Both the position numbers and the translations under genes were made by a program. 64,000 nt of DNA from Patescibacteria group bacterium (GTDB lineage Bacteria > Patescibacteriota > Minisyncoccia > Minisyncoccales > PWPS01), in NCBI GenBank assembly GCA_051745165.1, contig JBNJDU010000002.1, positions 5,479 through 69,478 on the forward strand, in the 5' to 3' direction. The first letter of the stretch is position 1, and every line of letters starts with the position of its first letter. Shown here piece by piece: positions 657-8,979 of this stretch. A model generated the notes under the pieces. That model had not been told where the DNA came from and did not search any database. It worked only from the letters and a program-made list of their open reading frames with translations.

Positions 657-1088
657 CTAGGAAGGTTCATTAAAGTGCTTTTCAATAGCTAAAGATTGTA
701 TCTCTCTAACATCTTTATCAGACAAAGAATCAATATTAGGTTTGTTGGAAAATAATTCTCTATATGCTTTATTCAGGGCTATAAATCGATTTGATCCAAA
801 AGAAGGGCTAGGTGGAAACTTAAACCATTTAATTCTTTTTTTATAAAACCAAGATAGTTTATTATTTTTATTTGCTTTACTTAAAAATTTTTTAGCTTTA
901 TTTATTTTCCTTTCCATCCTTTCTTTTATCCGCTTATAGGAATTTTTATTAGTTTCCATCACTGACTTATTATTTTTCCAGCGCAAAGAAATTACTCGAA
1001 AATATAATTTTAATCCTAGTAAAATTTCCTCTTGTCGTTTAATCTCTCTTCTAAAATTATCTATAACTGTAGAGTTTTCCTTTGTCAT
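657..1088 (-). CDS. Hypothetical basic protein (143 aa), no recognisable domain
   Basis: From the ORF track; Lys/Arg-rich. It is flanked on both sides by the 38-bp hairpin repeat. Confidence 0.45.
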   Translation of the reverse strand: MTKENSTVIDNFRREIKRQEEILLGLKLYFRVISLRWKNNKSVMETNKNSYKRIKERMERKINKAKKFLSKANKNNKLSWFYKKRIKWFKFPPSPSFGSNRFIALNKAYRELFSNKPNIDSLSDKDVREIQSLAIEKHFNEPS

Positions 1089-1155: not shown

Positions 1156-1196
1156 AAAACTCAGCTAAATGCTGGGTGTTTTATATGGCTCCGCTT
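1156..1196. repeat. 38-bp repeat copy 2 (aaaactcagctaaatgctgggtgttttatatggctccgc)
   Basis: 36/38 identical to copy 1. Immediately followed by a 9-bp perfect inverted repeat (gcttagtag...ctactaagc, 1195-1272) enclosing ~60 nt. Confidence 0.6.
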
Positions 1197-1284
1197 AGTA
1201 GACCAGTTTAGAATATTTGATTGGGGTAAAATAGAAGCAGAAGTAGAATTTTTTCAAACGCTACTAAGCTAGTTTAATTTATTT

Positions 1285-2925
1285 TTACCACTGGAAAATC
1301 CTTAAAAAGAAAGTTTTTATGGAATTGAATATTCTTACAATAAAAATTTCTCTCTCTTTTTCTTCGCTTGTTTTTTCCGTTATTTCTCCTCTTTGCTTTG
1401 GTTGGTTATCTGTTATTATTTTCTCCTCTTTTTCTTCTCCTTTATCATCTTTTTCGCCTTCTTTAGCTTCTACTAATCTTCCATCCTTTTCCTCTTTTTC
1501 TTCTCCGTTATTTTCATATTCTTCACTTTCTACTAACTCTTTATTCTCACTATTTTTGTTACTCTTACCATCTCCACTTTTTTCTTTCATAGTAAAATTT
1601 ACACTTTTACTTGATTTTTCCACCTCAAAACTGCCTTTATAATCTTCATAATTTTCTAATTTAGCAATAAACCAATATTTTCCAGTTTCAAAATTTTCCT
1701 CAACTTCACCATCTAAGCTAGTAGTTATTTCATTAACTTTTCCTGTAAAGTCTTCATAGGAATAAATTTCAATAGAAACACCCTCTAAACCATTTTCCTC
1801 ACTAAAAATCAGGGGGTATTTCTTTTTTTGGAATTCCGCCAAAATAGAGTAATTTCCTTTTATAGCAATGGTTGTATCTTCTAGATTAGGATCAGAAATA
1901 TTATCCACATCACCATTCCAGCCAATAAATTTATAACCCGGTTTAGGCTTTACCTTTAGTTCAATTTCATCTCCCCAGTTGTAATTAAATATTCCTTCTC
2001 CCGGATTAACTATATTTCCACTAGTTCCCGAATTTAATTCTAATTTATGCTTAGTTTCTTCAACAGTAATAGTAGTTGTATAACCAAGTTTTTCAGCTAT
2101 TTGATTAGCTTCATCCTCGTTAAGATTTCCACTGATCTGTATTTGTCCCCCGGAAATTTCTTCTTGAATAGTTGCTCTTTGAATTCTCTCTTCATTTAAA
2201 TAAATAGCAATCGACTTTCCAATATTTTCTTTAGTTAATTCTCGTAAAATTTCCGATCCTTGATTATTAAGTTTAATATGAATTACAGCACGATTAGTCA
2301 TCTCGTTAATATATGGTTCTGCATTGACTATATGCTTTTCATCTAAATTAGTAGAAGTAAAAATGCCTTCAAATGCTATTTCCCAATTATTTATCTCTTC
2401 ATCTAATACTGACTTTTGTTCTTCTGTAATATTTTCAATATCATTTATACTTAAAAGTTCTTTAATTTCTTCCTTTTTAGAATTAATTTTCTCAACTTCT
2501 TCGTCCCTTTTCTCTACTTTAAATTCTAAAGAAATATCTTCAACATCTCTTTTATCAAAAGTATATTTATATTCTTCATCTTTATAAGCTCTGAATTTAA
2601 ACCCAACTATATAATCACCAGGCTCTGTAAATTTAAAATTCCACTTAAATTCCCAACCTCTTCTAGGTTTTTCTATTTTTTTCTTTTTCATAAACTCCTC
2701 TTCAATAGAACCTTGCTTTTCCAAAATTTTAATTAACGGTTCAAATTGCCATTTACTTTCACCTTTATTTTCATCTTCAAGCTCTAAAAAAACTGGGACT
2801 TCTATTTTTTGACCTTGGTTTATAATATCAGGAAATTCCATACTAATACTTTTCTCTACACCAGCAAAAGCTGTTAGTGGGAACAAAAAAGATAGCAGGA
2901 AAATTATTATTTTATTTAAAGACAT
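1285..2925 (-). CDS. Secreted surface protein with signal peptide and a Listeria-Bacteroides (Flg_new-type) repeat; acidic, Lys-rich C-terminus
   Basis: N-terminal signal peptide [21 protein letters not shown]. The motif KPKPGYKFIGWNGDVDN...ILAEF matches the bacterial surface-protein repeat consensus. Confidence 0.55.
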   Translation of the reverse strand: MSLNKIIIFLLSFLFPLTAFAGVEKSISMEFPDIINQGQKIEVPVFLELEDENKGESKWQFEPLIKILEKQGSIEEEFMKKKKIEKPRRGWEFKWNFKFTEPGDYIVGFKFRAYKDEEYKYTFDKRDVEDISLEFKVEKRDEEVEKINSKKEEIKELLSINDIENITEEQKSVLDEEINNWEIAFEGIFTSTNLDEKHIVNAEPYINEMTNRAVIHIKLNNQGSEILRELTKENIGKSIAIYLNEERIQRATIQEEISGGQIQISGNLNEDEANQIAEKLGYTTTITVEETKHKLELNSGTSGNIVNPGEGIFNYNWGDEIELKVKPKPGYKFIGWNGDVDNISDPNLEDTTIAIKGNYSILAEFQKKKYPLIFSEENGLEGVSIEIYSYEDFTGKVNEITTSLDGEVEENFETGKYWFIAKLENYEDYKGSFEVEKSSKSVNFTMKEKSGDGKSNKNSENKELVESEEYENNGEEKEEKDGRLVEAKEGEKDDKGEEKEEKIITDNQPKQRGEITEKTSEEKEREIFIVRIFNSIKTFFLRIFQW

Positions 2926-2946
2926 AAATCTCTCTTTCTTTATTTT

Positions 2947-3858
2947 TTAATATCCAACAGCTTCCGCGCCATATTTAGCTTGCTGACGTGTAAACCCATC
3001 ATATTCGAGTTGTTCAATCAATCCTTCTCTAGAAAATGAAGTGTAATTTAAGTAATCTTCAGCACTTTTTGCTGCCTGCTTATTCCAATCAGCTCCGCAG
3101 TTTTCTGCCCCATACACAGCTTCTTTGTGTGTAAACCCATCATATTCGAGTTGTTCAATCAATCCTTCTCTAGAAAATGAAGTGTAATTTAAGTAATCTT
3201 CAGCACTTCTTAATGCATTCTTTTCACCTAACGTTGTATTGTCTGACTCTGGCTTTGATTCACAAACATTATTTGTGCATTTATACCCATCCGAGCAATT
3301 TCCGTGATCATATACTATTTCACAACTTTCAGTTTCTTCACTAAGCCCGACACACTTTTCTCCCCCGTAAGCAGGTTTAGGATCATCACAAGTTCTAGTT
3401 CTTATTTTCTCTCCCTCAACTCTACTTTCCCCACATTCTAAATCAGGAGGGTTGATTTGACATTCACTCCATTTACTCCATCTACTCCAACCGCCATCAA
3501 TTGGTTTAGGCTTCTCTGGCTCTGATTCAGATTCCTCTTCTATTTTTGTTGTATCTGTTTGTGTCGGCTGCTCTACCTCCTTTACCTCCTCTGTTATTGA
3601 TTCTTCCCGAGATTCTTTATTTTCCACTACATCAGATTCTGATTTAGGAACATCAAGTTCAGGATCTACTTTTTCGGTTGTTTCTGTAGTTATTCCAAAT
3701 AAAACAAAAAATACAATAAATGCTCCACCAAATAATAAACTTGTCTTTTTTCTGGTAACCTTTCCTTTAATAAAGCGTTCAAAGGAAGATGGTTTAATAA
3801 GTCCATAAATTAAAGATCCTAATGAAAGAAGGATTAGAAATAAAAATAAATCATCCAT
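2947..3858 (-). CDS. Membrane-anchored protein (2 TM) with a thrombospondin type-1-like repeat (WSRWSKWSEC...CGES...IRTRTC..PKPAYGGEKCVG) and two tandem Ltp-family (phage superinfection-exclusion lipoprotein, PF07553-like) repeats
   Basis: The tryptophan/cysteine spacing matches the TSR consensus WSxWSxWSxC...CG...RxRxC..PxP..GGxxCxG. The C-terminus has two 47-aa repeats (SAEDYLNYTSFSREGLIEQLEYDGFT...). The underlying DNA is a 141-bp-period tandem repeat. Confidence 0.7.
   Translation of the reverse strand: MDDLFLFLILLSLGSLIYGLIKPSSFERFIKGKVTRKKTSLLFGGAFIVFFVLFGITTETTEKVDPELDVPKSESDVVENKESREESITEEVKEVEQPTQTDTTKIEEESESEPEKPKPIDGGWSRWSKWSECQINPPDLECGESRVEGEKIRTRTCDDPKPAYGGEKCVGLSEETESCEIVYDHGNCSDGYKCTNNVCESKPESDNTTLGEKNALRSAEDYLNYTSFSREGLIEQLEYDGFTHKEAVYGAENCGADWNKQAAKSAEDYLNYTSFSREGLIEQLEYDGFTRQQAKYGAEAVGY
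2988..3221. repeat. Tandem DNA repeat, period 141 bp, 2 copies (~93-bp near-identical core) inside CDS 2947..3858; encodes the duplicated Ltp-like module
   Basis: gtgtaaacccatcatattcgagttgttcaatcaatccttctctagaaaatgaagtgtaatttaagtaatcttcagcactt occurs at 2988 and again at 3129. Confidence 0.8.
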
Positions 3859-3977
3859 AATTTCTCTTTCTTATATTATTTTTAATAATTTCACTACTTT
3901 TCTTATTTAACTATACCACAAAGCAAAATCCAGCTAAATGCTGGGATAAATAAAGAATATTTATCTTAAAATACGGA

Positions 3978-4199
3978 TTAAAAAGTGAACTTATCTGAGG
4001 AATTTAAGTTTTCTTCTCTCTTGATCAGTTGACATAGGGCCTTCTCCCTGGCTTCTAAATCCCTCGGATCTTCCATATCTATCGAAGATCTGTTGTACTT
4101 TATCAGTAAACGCCGAGCTTTCTTCTGCGAAACTCCTAGATATTTGGCCACCCTTTTGTGTCTTCCTTTTAGAGATAGTTGGGCATCTTTCTGAGTCAT
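3978..4199 (-). CDS. Small HTH DNA-binding protein (Fis/IS3-OrfA-like helix-turn-helix; VAKYLGVSQKKARRLLIKY)
   Basis: 73-aa ORF from the track; the HTH motif resembles Fis-type/transposase HTHs. Could be a regulator or a recombination directionality factor of the island. Confidence 0.45.
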   Translation of the reverse strand: MTQKDAQLSLKGRHKRVAKYLGVSQKKARRLLIKYNRSSIDMEDPRDLEAREKALCQLIKREENLNSSDKFTF

Positions 4200-4210
4200 A
4201 ATCTTTAAAT

Positions 4211-4360
4211 TTATTTTTTATTTTTCCTTTTCTCTTTTTTCTTCAAGCCTTCTTTTAAACCTTTCACTATCTTCTCTGTGAACTTTGTCTTTGATTTCTG
4301 ATTTCCTGAAGAGTTTTTTGTAGGTGTTGAGTTAGATTTTTTATTCTTTTTGCTATTCAT
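4211..4360 (-). CDS. Possible small basic protein (49 aa, MNSKKNKKSNSTPTKNSSGNQKSKTKFTEKIVKGLKEGLKKKEKRKNKK), immediately upstream of the HTH gene
   Basis: Hand-translated from the minus strand. Not in the ORF track (short). Low complexity, so it may be non-coding. Confidence 0.2.
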   Translation of the reverse strand: MNSKKNKKSNSTPTKNSSGNQKSKTKFTEKIVKGLKEGLKKKEKRKNKK

Positions 4361-4461
4361 AAATTTTAATTAAATAACATATTTATTATGAGTTTTTTCG
4401 TCTTATAAAAAAGGGAAGCTAAAAGGTATTTTATTAGGAAAGTATTGCAATCAAAACAATC

Positions 4462-5226
4462 TTATAATTCAATTGGTTGCCGTATAGGTACACCCTCTAG
4501 TTCAATAAATTTATCTTTCCAATCCTGACTTCTCATCTCGACTTTTTTGAGTTTTGCATCTTTGGGTATTTCATATGTTGCTTTCTGGTAATTAGTTAAT
4601 CCTGGAGCTATTGTTTCTGTATTAACAAATGTTTGGTCTTCTTGCTTATTAAATTTTCTTCCTTCATCATCTATTAGCTGTCCCAACGACCAACTAACTA
4701 ATATTTCTTCTTTTGTTTTGTTTTTTAATCCGATTTTTATCACCATAAGCTTTCCCTCAGCCCATAATCTATCTTCTCTTTTTATTTTAATAGAATTAAT
4801 TTCAATTTCTTTGCCTAAATTGAACCTATTAATTCCCGTCACTGTTTTTGAAGCTCTTTCTGTTTTATTTTCTAAATAGTCGACTCCTATTGTTGTTCCA
4901 GTTAAAAAAAATAAAGTTAAAACTAAGATAATTATTTTTTTAAATGGCAGAAGTTTGGAACTTTTCTCTTTTCCATACGCAATATAAAGAATAATTCGAT
5001 AATAAATCACGCTTAAGATTAGATATAGTAAAACAGAAAAAGATAAAGAACTCAAGGTTGAAACAAAAAAACTTTCACCACTTGAAGTAGCCACGATTAA
5101 TATAGCGATGAAAATAATTACATCCGAAATATAAATAAGTGACTTTGCCAGTCTATGCCACCATTTATTTTCTAATAAGCGTTCCTCTGCTTTGTTTTTA
5201 TTATTTTCTTCTTCCATCTTTTTCAT
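4462..5226 (-). CDS. Membrane protein (2 TM) with a C-terminal extracytoplasmic beta-rich domain (DUF4352-like)
   Basis: The ORF track gives a hydrophobic N-terminal region followed by a soluble domain. The domain assignment is from memory and weak. Confidence 0.45.
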   Translation of the reverse strand: MKKMEEENNKNKAEERLLENKWWHRLAKSLIYISDVIIFIAILIVATSSGESFFVSTLSSLSFSVLLYLILSVIYYRIILYIAYGKEKSSKLLPFKKIIILVLTLFFLTGTTIGVDYLENKTERASKTVTGINRFNLGKEIEINSIKIKREDRLWAEGKLMVIKIGLKNKTKEEILVSWSLGQLIDDEGRKFNKQEDQTFVNTETIAPGLTNYQKATYEIPKDAKLKKVEMRSQDWKDKFIELEGVPIRQPIEL

Positions 5227-5413
5227 TGTTGGTTTTATTGTTTTTCTTTATTACTTAACTATACCACAAGATAAAACTTTATCTAAGTTATAAGATAATG
5301 GGTAGTTTTTTCGTCTTATAAAAAGGGGGTTAATACCGCTACTATGGTTGCCTATTAATTTACTAAATTGTTGATTTTAATTAGAATAAAATAAGATACT
5401 TAATAAAAATGTA

Positions 5414-6172
5414 ATGAATTCATCTAAAAATCAATCAAAAGAAAAACTTTTAACTTACCTTGATCACTTTATAGAGTCAGATTTTTTTCAAAAAATGGTA
5501 AGAGAAACAAGAGAAGAACTAAACATCCCCAAAAAGGGACTTAATAAATCAAAAGACGAACTTACAAGCTGCTCTTGGGATAAGTATATTTTATATATTC
5601 CGGAAGAATTAAAAGGCGATAAAGGGGAGATATTAAGATTTGTTAACAGTCAAATGGGGAGAGCTTATGAAAAATTTCCTGTAAATGATATCCGGATAAC
5701 TGCTATTTTTACTGTATATATTTATTATAATTTAAAAATATATAAAATTTTAAACAAAACAGACAATATCTGTTCTATTGAGGATATTAAGCAAACAATT
5801 CAGGAAAGAGAAGGATTAAAATTAAATTCTAAGGAAATAAATAGAATGATTGGAACTGATACATACCCTGTAATTTTAAAAATAAACCCTTCTGCAAGTC
5901 AGCGAGATATAGTTTCTTATATTAAAGATAATTGGAAAATTATTAAATATCATCTTGATAAGTATGAAAATAAATCAAAATTAGGAAAAATAAGATCTAG
6001 AGATCCAAAAATTAAAGAAAGAGATCGATTTATTTATAAAAATAGAGAAAAACCATATAAAGAAATAGTTTCTTTGGTTCAAAAAAAATTCCCTGAAGTA
6101 AGCGATTCGATTGATCAAGGTTCTGTTGGAAAAATAATTTCACTTGAGAGACAAAGAAGGAAAGAAGTGTAG
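5414..6172 (+). CDS. Hypothetical basic protein (252 aa), island-borne
   Basis: ORF track. No recognisable motif. Followed by a hairpin terminator at 6210-6236. Confidence 0.45.
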   Translation: MNSSKNQSKEKLLTYLDHFIESDFFQKMVRETREELNIPKKGLNKSKDELTSCSWDKYILYIPEELKGDKGEILRFVNSQMGRAYEKFPVNDIRITAIFTVYIYYNLKIYKILNKTDNICSIEDIKQTIQEREGLKLNSKEINRMIGTDTYPVILKINPSASQRDIVSYIKDNWKIIKYHLDKYENKSKLGKIRSRDPKIKERDRFIYKNREKPYKEIVSLVQKKFPEVSDSIDQGSVGKIISLERQRRKEV

Positions 6173-6209
6173 TACACTTATTTCTTATACAATTTAATAT
6201 ACGTCTTAT

Positions 6210-6236
6210 AACCTGTTATCAAGCAGGTTATTTTTT
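6210..6236 (+). terminator. Rho-independent terminator (aacctgttatcaagcaggtt + T6)
   Basis: Perfect 6-bp stem followed by a T-run, directly after the 5414..6172 stop. Confidence 0.6.
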
Positions 6237-6276
6237 ATGGCTAAAAATTAAATTAGTATTTCAACTGCCAAGAAGT

Positions 6277-6417
6277 ATGGATCTAACCAAACCTTCAATT
6301 AAAGAGCTTCAAAATATCCTCGAAAAGGATTACGGAGTTTCTTTAAACGAAAAAGAAGTTAATTCCTTTGGAGTTTTAGTCCTAAAAATTTTACAAACTA
6401 TAAGTAATAAAAAATAA
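6277..6417 (+). CDS. Possible small protein (46 aa, MDLTKPSIKELQNILEKDYGVSLNEKEVNSFGVLVLKILQTISNKK)
   Basis: Hand-translated. Its stop lies 2 nt before the next ORF start (6420). Not in the ORF track. Confidence 0.2.
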   Translation: MDLTKPSIKELQNILEKDYGVSLNEKEVNSFGVLVLKILQTISNKK

Positions 6418-6419
6418 AT

Positions 6420-6854
6420 ATGAACAATGAAGGGCCAAATAAAATTATGCTAAGGAAAGGAGTTGATAACAATCCTGAAGATGCTTTTAAAGGCTTAGAC
6501 CATCCCTCTAAAAAAACAAAAGAAAATGCTCAAAATGAAATAAAAAAGTTTACAAAAAGAAATTGGCTTGCGTACAGTCCAGACTTAGCAAAAATTCTTA
6601 ATTCTGTAAAAGCGGGAATTTTTCTCTCACAACTCATCTATTGGCACGGAAAAGGTGCTGATTCTGAAAAGTTTTACAAGACGATAAAAGAATTAAAGGA
6701 AGAAACAGAATTAAGCAAAGGAGAGCAATATAGAGCTCAAAAAATATGTGAGAAAAAAGATTTAATCGAGGTTACTTATGACAAGATTCCACCAAAGAGA
6801 CACTACAAAATTAAAATTAAAAAGATAAAAGAATTATTAAAAGGCATTGATTAG
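6420..6854 (+). CDS. Winged-helix DNA-binding protein, DnaD/phage replication-organizer-like (weak call)
   Basis: The segment GIFLSQLIYWHGKG...FYKTIKELKEETELSKGEQYRAQKICEKKDLIEV resembles replication-initiator/DnaD-type wHTH domains. No decisive motif. Confidence 0.35.
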   Translation: MNNEGPNKIMLRKGVDNNPEDAFKGLDHPSKKTKENAQNEIKKFTKRNWLAYSPDLAKILNSVKAGIFLSQLIYWHGKGADSEKFYKTIKELKEETELSKGEQYRAQKICEKKDLIEVTYDKIPPKRHYKIKIKKIKELLKGID

Positions 6855-7209
6855 TGAATGTAGGCGGTTATTATATGAATTTTATCAAGCATTTAAAGGT
6901 TTTAAAATAAGTCATATATTACAGAGATTACCTTTCATAGATTACTTACAGAGCTTTCTCTTTACAAGAGAGGATTCCGTAAATATAGACATTTACGAAA
7001 TCCAAAAATATACCTAGAAAGAAAAATTAAATAATAAAGAAATTTATTTATTTACCTTGAAGTGCTATAATAAAAGTAGACATTGCCATTATTATTTTGA
7101 GAGTAGGAAGGGGCGTTTCTGTTTTGTTCTCGAAAGAGGCAATGTCTAGCAGAAGCGTCCCTTTTTGTTTATTAGCTTGCTCTTACTATATTTATTAAAT
7201 TTTTATTTT

Positions 7210-8934
7210 ATGATTTCAAATAAAAAAGCGGACAAATATTTTATGTATTGTCGTAAATCAAGTGAATCTGAGGATCGACAAATACAATCTATAGACGCAC
7301 AAAAAAGAGAGCTTAAGAAAATAGCAAAGAAGGATAATTTGAATGTAGTGGATATATTAACTGAATCAGCTTCAGCAAAGGAGCCAGGAAGACTAGTATT
7401 TAATAATATGATTAAGAGAATAGAAGATGGAGAAGTTGATGGTTTATTAGTGTGGAAAGTTAATCGATTAGCTAGAAATGCTCGTGATGGAGGAACAGTT
7501 AAGTGGCTTTTACAAGATGGAGTAATAAAGCACATAAAAACATTTTCAGGAAATCATTACCCCGAAGATAATGCTGTTGTTTTATCTGTAGAAATGGGTA
7601 TGTCTGCACAGTACTCAAGAGATTTGAGTACTGACACGAAAAGAGGTTTACGTGAAAGATATGAGAGAGGTTATCCGAACGGACAAGCTCCCATTGGCTA
7701 TAAAAATGATTTAAGTAAAAAGCCTGGTAATAGAGGATGGAAAGTTAATGAAGATCGCTTTCCTTTAGTTAAAAAGCTTTTAAAGTTGTATTTAACAGGA
7801 GATCATTCTGTTAGTAGTCTCAAAAAGATAGCCAATGATAAGTTTAATTTAACTACTCCAGAGAGAAAGAATAAAGGAGGTAAAAAGATTTCTAGATCAT
7901 ACATTCATCATATGCTACAAAATCCAGTGTATGCAGGCTTCTTTCTTGTAAACGGCAGTAAAAGATATGAGTTAAACCCTAAAGTACCTACAATGATAAC
8001 GGAAGAAGAATATAATAAAATTCAAGATATTCTAAGCGATAAAAATAGATCTAGAACTTCCAGTTTAGAAAAAAGCTTTCCTTACAAAGAAGGTGGGAGG
8101 ATGATTTGTGGTTATTGTGGAGGGGTAGTCTCTGCAGAAAGAAAAAGCCAAGTAATTTGTTCTAATTGTAATAAAAAGTTTTCCAGGATAAGTAAAGATA
8201 AGTGCCCGAGCTGTGGAACTGAAATAAGTAAAATGGAGGATCCTACCTTTTTGGATTATAAATACTATCACTGTACTAAAAATAAAGACTCAGAGTGTCC
8301 TAGTCCGTATATAAGAGAAGAAAAGATAAATGAGGAGGTGAGCACTTTCCTTAAGAATAATTTGGAGATATCCCCTTCCTTGCGTGAATGGTGTGTTAAA
8401 AATGTAAAACAACTAGAAAAGGATAAGAGGCAACGGATTAAAAAACAAAAAGATAAATGGGAGGAAGAGTTAAAAGAAAAGGAAGAAGAGTATGACCGTC
8501 TTTTAAGAATGCAATTAAAGGAAGATTTTGATATGGATAAAGAGGATTTTAATAGACTAAAAAACGAAATAAAATCAGAAAAGAATGCTGTTAAGAGTAA
8601 ACTGAAAGAGTTAGAAAGCAATTCTGATAATATAGAAAAGAAACTAAAAAAGACACTTGATATCACTACAGGAGTTTCAAATATATTTAAAAAAGGAACC
8701 AGTGAAGAAAAGAAAGAAGTTTTATCAAAAACTGCTTCGAACTTAACTGTTAAGAAGGATGAAATCCAAATTTCAAGTCAAAACCACTTCTCTATCTTAT
8801 TGGAGGCTCTTTCGGCAGTTAAAGATGAAAACCCCTCATTCGAACCCCGAAATAGTACCCCTTTTAACGGAAAAACCGAGGTTGAAGCCTCGGCTTGTCC
8901 TGTTTTGCTCCGCGGACAGGATTCGAACCTGTGA
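7210..8934 (+). CDS. Large serine recombinase (resolvase/invertase N-terminal catalytic domain YCRKSSESEDRQ, recombinase domain, Zn-ribbon, coiled-coil), i.e. a phage-type integrase
   Basis: The ORF track frame starts at 7165, but the catalytic Ser motif and spacing favour the Met at 7210. The 3' end of the ORF reads through the tRNA-Asn terminator into the tRNA gene (overlap 8908-8934). Confidence 0.85.
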   Translation: MISNKKADKYFMYCRKSSESEDRQIQSIDAQKRELKKIAKKDNLNVVDILTESASAKEPGRLVFNNMIKRIEDGEVDGLLVWKVNRLARNARDGGTVKWLLQDGVIKHIKTFSGNHYPEDNAVVLSVEMGMSAQYSRDLSTDTKRGLRERYERGYPNGQAPIGYKNDLSKKPGNRGWKVNEDRFPLVKKLLKLYLTGDHSVSSLKKIANDKFNLTTPERKNKGGKKISRSYIHHMLQNPVYAGFFLVNGSKRYELNPKVPTMITEEEYNKIQDILSDKNRSRTSSLEKSFPYKEGGRMICGYCGGVVSAERKSQVICSNCNKKFSRISKDKCPSCGTEISKMEDPTFLDYKYYHCTKNKDSECPSPYIREEKINEEVSTFLKNNLEISPSLREWCVKNVKQLEKDKRQRIKKQKDKWEEELKEKEEEYDRLLRMQLKEDFDMDKEDFNRLKNEIKSEKNAVKSKLKELESNSDNIEKKLKKTLDITTGVSNIFKKGTSEEKKEVLSKTASNLTVKKDEIQISSQNHFSILLEALSAVKDENPSFEPRNSTPFNGKTEVEASACPVLLRGQDSNL

Positions 8935-8979
8935 CATCCTCCTTAACAGGGAGGCGTTCTACCGCTGAACTACCGCGGA
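8908..8979 (-). tRNA. tRNA-Asn (anticodon GTT)
   Basis: Cloverleaf folded by hand: acceptor TCCGCGG/CCGCGGA, anticodon loop cTGTTAa, T-loop GGTTCGAATCC. No encoded CCA. A hairpin plus T-run terminator lies 3' of it. Confidence 0.85.

Follow-up and report, generated by a model that had tools for sequence, protein, structure and literature searches.

A membrane protein joining a thrombospondin type-1 repeat to paired Ltp domains, encoded by an integrative element of a Patescibacterium

Few superinfection-exclusion proteins have both a known structure and a known target, and Ltp is among them. In the Ltp of the Streptococcus thermophilus phage TP-J34 (4EQQ), which is membrane-tethered and surface-exposed, an anchor is followed by a flexible spacer and two tandem three-helix HTH repeats. 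Here, we describe a gene with the same plan, located in a 64,000-nucleotide stretch of contig JBNJDU010000002.1 (positions 5,479 to 69,478; this whole stretch is referred to below as the window) from a Patescibacteria group bacterium. The gene is complete (Table 1) and encodes a 303-aa protein in which two N-terminal hydrophobic helices are followed, in order, by an acidic linker of 60 aa, a single thrombospondin type-1 repeat (TSR), a short hairpin bearing Cys residues and a pair of Ltp repeats. Both parts of this combination are known domain types, and no other TSR-Ltp fusion was found in the databases searched. By analogy with TP-J34 Ltp, we propose, with confidence poised about midway between doubt and acceptance, that the product of this gene is a superinfection-exclusion protein of the Ltp type, that the gene is an accessory one, with its own promoter, on an integrative element of approximately 7.7 kb, and that the TSR forms part of the stalk of the protein.

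The Ltp family has been described as having an anchor-spacer-repeat plan (PMC3952083), with a flexible spacer and an acidic repeat domain (PMC3952083, PMC5137146). This acidic repeat domain has been reported to be important for binding to the tape-measure protein, the basic end of which is contacted by acidic residues (PMC3952083). An acidic repeat domain and coding on an integrated element are common to TP-J34 Ltp and the protein described here. The two proteins nevertheless differ in several respects: in the Patescibacterium protein, two hydrophobic helices replace the lipobox and lipid anchor, the spacer is acidic rather than Ser-rich, and the spacer is separated from the repeats by a TSR and a Cys hairpin. 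The host is also different, the element has no phage structural genes, and the protein is known from its sequence, its role in exclusion being putative. A second point of comparison is provided by Firmicutes proteins consisting of a zinc ribbon, a transmembrane helix, a linker and three Ltp repeats (P0047 and P0090), which are likewise transmembrane-anchored non-lipoproteins with an acidic linker. Proteins of this type contain the same internal (..CGADWNEQAAKSA..) and terminal (..AVGY) repeats and are 55-76% identical to the protein studied here in the Ltp part, but their zinc ribbon is cytoplasmic, their repeats number three or four, and a TSR is absent. Pneumococcal CbpL (Excalibur, choline-binding module, Ltp) also carries Ltp within a non-lipoprotein, multi-domain surface protein, and therefore provides a precedent for the joining of Ltp to other extracellular modules; it differs in having a single Ltp unit, attachment to the wall via choline binding and no TSR, and in being a chromosomal virulence factor (PMC5137146).

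The initial annotation had identified the open reading frame (ORF) and quoted its sequence, and both were confirmed, the ORF being on the reverse strand. An identical protein is present at NCBI, on a contig of 74.6 kb, under the name 'MAG: Ltp family lipoprotein [Patescibacteria group bacterium]' (MAG, metagenome-assembled genome); the gene-position index searched contains no entry for exactly this protein. No Cys precedes residue 133 and a lipobox is therefore absent, making the name 'lipoprotein' inapplicable to this member of the family. The N-terminus is acidic (MDD), indicating that helix 1 is not a classical signal peptide, and helix 2 aligned with the anchor at the N-terminus of PHROG 4980. 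On the basis of hydropathy and the positive-inside rule, the Lys/Arg-rich loop between the two helices is predicted to be cytoplasmic and the C-terminal 245 aa are predicted to be external, in support of the earlier description of a membrane protein with an extracytoplasmic C-terminal part.

The assignment of the C-terminal repeats to the Ltp family, also made in the initial annotation, was upheld by comparisons of sequence and structure. Pfam Lipoprotein_Ltp (PF07553) matched two stretches, with 94.5 bits (E=4.1e-27) against a gathering threshold of 23.2 bits, and matches were also obtained with PHROG 4980 and PHROG 15667 (E=2e-31 and 7e-29, respectively), both of which are annotated as 'superinfection exclusion'. 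The last 94 aa align over both repeats of TP-J34 Ltp (residues 17-103 of the 107 in 4EQQ; E=1.4e-9). A model generated with AlphaFold2 (AF2) and 21 Ltp relatives consists of six helices, with a predicted local distance difference test (pLDDT) score of 98, and superimposes on 4EQQ with a template modelling (TM) score of 0.88 and a root-mean-square deviation (rmsd) of 1.2-1.9 Å. The Ltp pair is acidic (isoelectric point (pI) 4.45, net charge -8). The protein had no NCBIfam match. By its sequence and its predicted fold, it is a member of the Ltp family, albeit one without a lipid anchor.

The architecture of Ltp proteins was analysed in the 120 best of 1019 relatives. A lipobox was present within the first 40 aa in just 30 of these 120 proteins and is not, therefore, a general property of the Pfam Ltp family. 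The architectures of the family are highly modular, the partners of Ltp including zinc ribbons, PG_binding_1 and Big_2. Ltp domains are encoded by 141 records for phages of Gordonia, Streptococcus, Lactobacillus, Listeria and other hosts, several of these proteins being annotated as 'superinfection exclusion', and by eight viral (IMG/VR) contigs.

At the DNA level, the Ltp pair had been described as a near-identical 141-bp tandem duplication, the copy number of which was likely to be unstable. The tandem 141-nt repeat is present, but its two units are not near-identical: 111 of 141 positions (79%) are the same, with a perfect core of 80 nt (Table 1) and flanks in which 31 of 61 positions (51%) match. 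Tandem Repeats Finder did not report this 141-nt repeat, which has just two copies. The two repeats correspond to the conserved internal (..CGADWN..) and terminal (..AVGY) types of the Ltp family. A fresh tandem duplication was rejected on the basis of the low identity of the flanks and the distinct family types of the repeats; gene conversion between old repeats fits better with the combination of a perfect core and divergent flanks. A period of 141 nt is common to Ltp genes in general. It is exact in the Ltp genes of three IMG/VR contigs (L078, L080 and L083), which have two or three copies with 65-94% DNA identity between repeats, and this common period on viral contigs suggests that the repeats have evolved in concert throughout the Ltp family. 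The repeat count of the 120 best relatives was two (11 proteins), three (82) or four (27), making in-frame changes in copy number plausible for the family, on evidence that concerns differences between relatives only. For this particular gene, the suggestion of an unstable copy number was an overstatement.

The presence of a TSR, first noted in the initial annotation, was supported by searches of the PDB, alignment, profile and predicted fold, all of which agreed. The exception was Pfam, in which the anticipated match to TSP_1 (PF00090; residues 125-180) was found but was borderline, with 19.0 bits (E=0.0016) for a gathering threshold of 21.6 bits; TSP1_spondin and TSP1_CFP_C matched the same residues and were likewise below threshold. 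The shortfall for TSP_1 coincides with the enlargement of three loops of the repeat by inserted segments of 5, 4 and 4 aa. A phmmer search of all PDB sequences with residues 115-215 yielded 30 matches, every one of them a TSR protein, with thrombospondin-1 (E=6.7e-15; single-domain E 2e-6) and properdin (1e-12) at the top of the list, followed by UNC5, ADAMTS13 and C6-C8. Against 1.84 billion representatives, phmmer gave 3690 matches at E<=1e-3, led by multi-TSR proteins, the named ones being metazoan SCO-spondin-like. The segment scored 48.7 bits with a TSR profile built here from 314 units. In an alignment with nine TSRs, to which it is 39-50% identical, all 17 invariant columns were retained (three Trp, RxR, six Cys, CG, PxP and GG..C.G), and these columns were also kept in an alignment of 101 sequences. 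The residues concerned are in the group-1 register: W124, W127 and W130 (WxxWxxW), R153 and R155 (RxR), and Cys 133, 142, 157, 169, 179 and 188. The possibility of a low-complexity Cys/Trp-rich segment was rejected, given the exclusively TSR matches in the PDB and the 17 conserved columns.

An AF2 model computed with 100 TSR units had a pLDDT of 96-97 in the core and of about 60 in the insertion and tail, and the best 46 matches of this model to the PDB (Foldseek) were all TSR domains, with an rmsd of 2.5-3.4 Å. The TSR fold was therefore recovered, in a model that depends on the TSR alignment rows supplied: when residues 115-303 were modelled without these rows, the TSR segment had a pLDDT of 38-47, and this modelling does not, therefore, constitute an independent test of the fold. 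According to every test run other than the Pfam cut-off, the segment is, by sequence and modelled structure, a genuine TSR, the similarity being far beyond chance. Canonical TSRs have the disulfide connectivity C1-C5, C2-C6 and C3-C4 and stacked Trp-Arg layers; in the segment described here, both features are putative.

Animal group-1 TSRs (thrombospondin-1 TSR2/3, 1LSL and 7YYK; properdin; UNC5) have the WxxWxxW and RxR motifs and the six Cys in register with those of the bacterial segment, which is 39% identical to 7YYK over 61 columns and the predicted fold of which matches animal TSRs with an rmsd of 2.5-3 Å. By contrast to these animal domains, the TSR described here is present as a single copy, has three loop insertions and no CSx(S/T)CG site, is net acidic (pI 4.59, net charge -7), and is found in a bacterium, on a mobile element and fused to Ltp. 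The CSx(S/T)CG consensus for O-fucosylation is typical of animal TSRs without being strictly defining; it is absent here, the C1-C2 loop reading C-QINPPDLE-CG. The segment is 45-50% identical to prokaryotic and metazoan units alike, but it scored 56.7 bits with a profile of metazoan units and 43.7 bits with a profile of prokaryotic units, a 13-bit gap that may reflect its K/E-rich composition in a 33%-GC genome. In its preference for the metazoan profile, it resembles 98% of the metazoan test units and differs from 77% of the prokaryotic ones (23% of which behave in the same way). This copy of the TSR may therefore be derived from an animal-type lineage, as the metazoan profile gives the higher score, although composition bias may also explain this score.

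The initial annotation had considered TSRs to be rare in bacteria and had drawn attention to the presence of this one in an organism with a very small genome. A survey of 185,579 species genomes with a strict DNA pattern of canonical spacing, followed by a TSR profile, yielded 77 pattern-matched stretches, 57 loci of which were confirmed by the profile. TSRs are therefore rare in prokaryotes, as stated, but this example is not unique among small genomes, because TSRs recur in Patescibacteria and DPANN archaea. The confirmed loci include eight from seven genomes of Patescibacteria, one of them a single-cell genome (L004, L006, L009, L022, L027, L050, L065 and L075), seven or eight from DPANN archaea (L029, L034, L038, L058, L069, L071, L073 and L077), seven from Bdellovibrionota (L033, L045, L051, L052, L059, L070 and L072) and three from Myxococcales. 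All 10 of the Patescibacteria and DPANN ORFs scanned exceeded the Pfam TSP_1 threshold (30.6-148 bits), and the partner domains of their TSRs were Flg_new_2, beta-helix, PKD, He_PIG, Big_9 and fn3. The best single prokaryotic match to the TSR of the fusion protein (48% identity) was L065, from the single-cell genome, the neighbouring genes of which are bacterial (ribonucleotide reductase and M48 peptidase). Several other records probably correspond to eukaryotic contamination: L026, L039, L041 and L060 (a 'Metamycoplasmataceae' MAG), L057 (a 211-bp Acinetobacter contig) and L056 (a Dehalococcoidia MAG with 16 tandem TSRs). The TSR matches in these suspect records are in short exon-like ORFs or on tiny contigs.

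The TSR proteins of Patescibacteria and DPANN (L004, L006, L009, L027, L050, L065, L075, L058 and L077) resemble the fusion protein in that their TSRs are likewise found in ultra-small prokaryotes, and their partner domain Flg_new_2 is present, in our case, in the neighbouring gene. They differ in being 331 to more than 1000 aa long and S/T/G-rich, often with several TSRs, and with canonical spacing; their partners are PKD, He_PIG or beta-helix domains, and none is associated with Ltp. TSR and Ltp occurred together in none of the loci fetched. A word-indexed search of 5.8 billion clusters with the TSR segment alone revealed no word-sharing relative, and peptide-pattern scans with this segment identified no relative in genome, viral or metagenome contigs. 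Searches of the literature retrieved no paper on type-1 TSRs in Patescibacteria, DPANN or predatory bacteria, the matches obtained concerning type-3 repeats or eukaryotes.

The gene had been placed on a putative integrated element, and this location was substantiated by the presence of a serine integrase gene abutting a tRNA-Asn gene (Table 1). Two 61-nt copies, at positions 352-412 and 1156-1216 and with 80% identity, each contain a degenerate tRNA-Asn 3' end (GTTCGAAT..CCGCGGAGC), with a bidirectional terminator hairpin next to it. These copies resemble attachment-site (att)/tRNA remnants displaced by two successive integrations, suggesting that an element of about 7.7 kb (about 1217-8906) lies beside an older remnant (413-1155), which carries an ORF at 657..1088. 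In addition to the genes listed in Table 1, the element carries a gene for a phage O-like/DnaD-like protein, together with ORFs that are small or unknown. The 30-nt promoter-like box upstream from the gene for the fusion protein is 83% identical to that preceding the DUF4352 gene, which suggests a common promoter type for the accessory genes of the element. The fusion gene also has a ribosome-binding site-like element, together with its promoter-like and terminator-like elements, and is separated by a terminator-like hairpin from an upstream ORF of 73 aa. The gap to the downstream 546-aa gene is 21 nt, so the two genes are probably cotranscribed. The overall arrangement corresponds to that of accessory (moron-like) genes with independent expression.

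Table 1. Positions, in the window, of the gene for the TSR-Ltp protein, of its encoded segments and of the surrounding features.
Feature	Position	Strand	Basis or remark
Complete gene, 303-aa protein	2947..3858	-	stop codon 2947-2949
Hydrophobic helix 1, residues 4-21	3796..3849	-	Kyte-Doolittle profile
Lys/Arg-rich loop, residues 22-38, KPSSFERFIKGKVTRKKT	3745..3795	-	presumed cytoplasmic (positive-inside rule)
Hydrophobic helix 2, residues 39-57	3688..3744	-	Kyte-Doolittle profile
Acidic E/S/T/P-rich linker, residues 58-117	3508..3687	-	pI 4.06, net charge -15.6
TSR, residues 118-190	3289..3507	-	sequence searches, alignments, predicted fold
Short tail and spacer, residues 191-215; C194 and C199 on predicted beta-hairpin	3214..3288	-	model pLDDT about 60 (low)
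Ltp repeat 1, residues 216-256; three-helix unit, internal type, ending ..ENCGA	3091..3213	-	Pfam, 4EQQ alignment, model
Ltp repeat 2, residues 257-303; three-helix unit, terminal type, ending ..AEAVGY	2950..3090	-	Pfam, 4EQQ alignment, model
80-nt tract, 100% identical to 3129-3208	2988..3067	.	offset 141 nt (47 codons); repeat search and direct alignment
80-nt tract, second copy	3129..3208	.	repeat search and direct alignment
Promoter-like box, extended -10 (TGGTATAGT)	3899..3928	-	83% identical to box at 5247-5276 upstream of DUF4352 gene
Terminator-like hairpin closing upstream 73-aa ORF	3930..3944	-	separates this ORF from the TSR-Ltp gene
Downstream 546-aa gene	1285..2925	-	hydrophobic N-terminus, SecDF P1-head-like domain, divergent InlB B-repeat (Flg_new_2)
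Bidirectional terminator hairpin, end of putative two-gene operon	1159..1177	.	follows the 546-aa gene
Degenerate tRNA-Asn 3' end and terminator; inferred far element boundary	1156..1216	-	one of two 61-nt copies
DUF4352 membrane protein	4462..5226	-	PHROG 806, unknown function
Large serine recombinase (integrase)	7165..8934	+	3' end overlaps tRNA-Asn
tRNA-Asn (GTT), integration target	8907..8979	-	abuts the integrase gene

In the 546-aa protein, the SecDF P1-head-like domain (E=1e-21) occurs outside any SecDF membrane protein and is accompanied by a long E/K-rich C-terminal region. The DUF4352 protein is a second membrane-anchored surface protein of the element, and its gene may be a further exclusion or envelope-modifying accessory gene. 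Outside the element, the window also carries rpoB, rpoC, rpoD, dnaG, ftsK, ligA, recG and a gene for a type IV pilus ATPase, and these genes physically link the TSR-Ltp gene to the bacterial chromosome. The GC content at third codon positions (GC3) is 0.233 for the TSR-coding segment, 0.215 for rpoB and 0.194 for rpoC; this match to host genes argues against contamination or very recent transfer.

Our proposal of a role in exclusion starts from observations made directly: which domains are present and in what order, the absence of a lipobox, how acidic the protein is, and the mobile-element context. In the mechanism envisaged, the two-helix hairpin would replace the lipid anchor of classical Ltp and hold the protein in the cytoplasmic membrane, with the residues from position 58 onward facing outward. 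The 60-aa acidic disordered linker and the disulfide-bonded TSR would together form a stalk carrying the Ltp pair away from the membrane. By analogy with TP-J34 Ltp, the acidic Ltp units would then prevent the DNA of an infecting phage from entering, through binding to its tape-measure or ejection protein. The TSR would either be a rigid spacer or provide an additional surface for the binding of a ligand from the cell envelope or a foreign surface. The exclusion activity and this role of the TSR, like the topology and the disulfides, are inferred.

Several observations weigh against this proposal. There are no phage structural or lysis genes among the genes of the element, which is not, therefore, a recognisable prophage, and the protein matched no PADLOC defence model. 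None of the 120 best of the 1019 Ltp relatives contains a TSR, indicating that a TSR is not needed for Ltp function. We know of no phage of this organism. The probable cotranscription with a gene for a secreted InlB-B-repeat protein and the use of TSRs in large surface proteins of Patescibacteria fit adhesion as well. Finally, Ltp domains also occur outside prophages, and other roles have been proposed for them, as in pneumococcal CbpL (PMC5137146).

A function in adhesion, put forward alongside exclusion in the initial annotation, is the first alternative to be weighed, and we regard it as possible, if rather unlikely. The protein would be a cell-contact protein of an epibiont, its TSR binding to the surface of a neighbouring cell or of the bacterium acting as host, perhaps with a contribution from the Ltp units as generic modules for binding proteins; it would act together with the cotranscribed secreted InlB-B-repeat protein, and the mobile element would spread a factor for host range or attachment. 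Such a function would be consistent with the above-threshold TSRs found, with adhesin-type partners, in long surface proteins of at least seven other Patescibacteria genomes and at least seven DPANN archaea, and with the fusion of Flg_new_2 to a TSR in L027 and L065, given that the same domain is encoded here by the gene 21 nt downstream. However, the ectodomain, of about 245 aa with only one TSR, is short for reaching past the cell envelope. Many animal TSRs have a basic face that binds glycosaminoglycans, unlike the acidic TSR described here, and no ligand is known for any prokaryotic TSR. The Ltp domain of CbpL has been suggested to play a role other than exclusion (PMC5137146), but the Ltp pair is the best-supported and most conserved part of the protein, and phage exclusion is the sole demonstrated function of Ltp (PMC3952083).

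The protein might instead have another function in the envelope, with the Ltp pair binding a self component, such as a protein of the cell wall or of the secretion machinery, and the TSR resulting from neutral domain shuffling on a decaying element; we consider this unlikely. The fusion is a singleton, searches of the 5.8 billion clusters and of the collections of genomes, viruses and metagenomes having revealed no close relative of the TSR segment, and the modularity of Ltp-family architectures and the absence of structural genes from an element that adjoins an older remnant are also in keeping with such shuffling. A neutral TSR is more difficult to reconcile with an intact ORF in which all the invariant TSR columns are kept and with the presence of promoter-like, ribosome-binding site-like and terminator-like elements, and a GC3 equal to that of host genes indicates that the segment is resident and maintained.

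A broader idea, which we consider doubtful, is that the TSR is a common contact module of cell-attached microbes (Patescibacteria, DPANN and Bdellovibrio-like predators), recognising the surface of the host or prey. A mobile element would, in this case, have fused such a module to a phage-exclusion domain, such that a single protein would govern both attachment and phage resistance.

Lastly, the insertion of a TSR fragment into a bacterial gene through chimeric assembly or eukaryotic contamination is very improbable: although the contig is metagenome-assembled, some MAG contigs with TSRs (L026, L039, L041 and L057) look contaminated with eukaryotic DNA and the TSR scores higher on the metazoan profile, this explanation was rejected given the bacterial genes of the window and the host-like GC3 of the segment, the TSR also being flanked, in one uninterrupted frame, by a membrane anchor and Ltp repeats that are both bacterial, and having no close (>55% identical) eukaryotic counterpart among the sequences found.

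If the proposed exclusion protein is considered in the context of its family, the Ltp module is found here outside the phages of Firmicutes and Actinobacteria, in a bacterium of ultra-small size, in a protein in which the anchor differs and an adhesive domain of eukaryotic type has been added. Patescibacteria live attached to other cells and, to our knowledge, little is known about their surface biology and phage defence. The ectodomain of the protein, which is small (about 245 aa) and expressible, provides a tractable entry to both these aspects of their biology. The recurrence of TSRs in Patescibacteria, DPANN and predatory bacteria points to a common domain repertoire for cell-cell contact.

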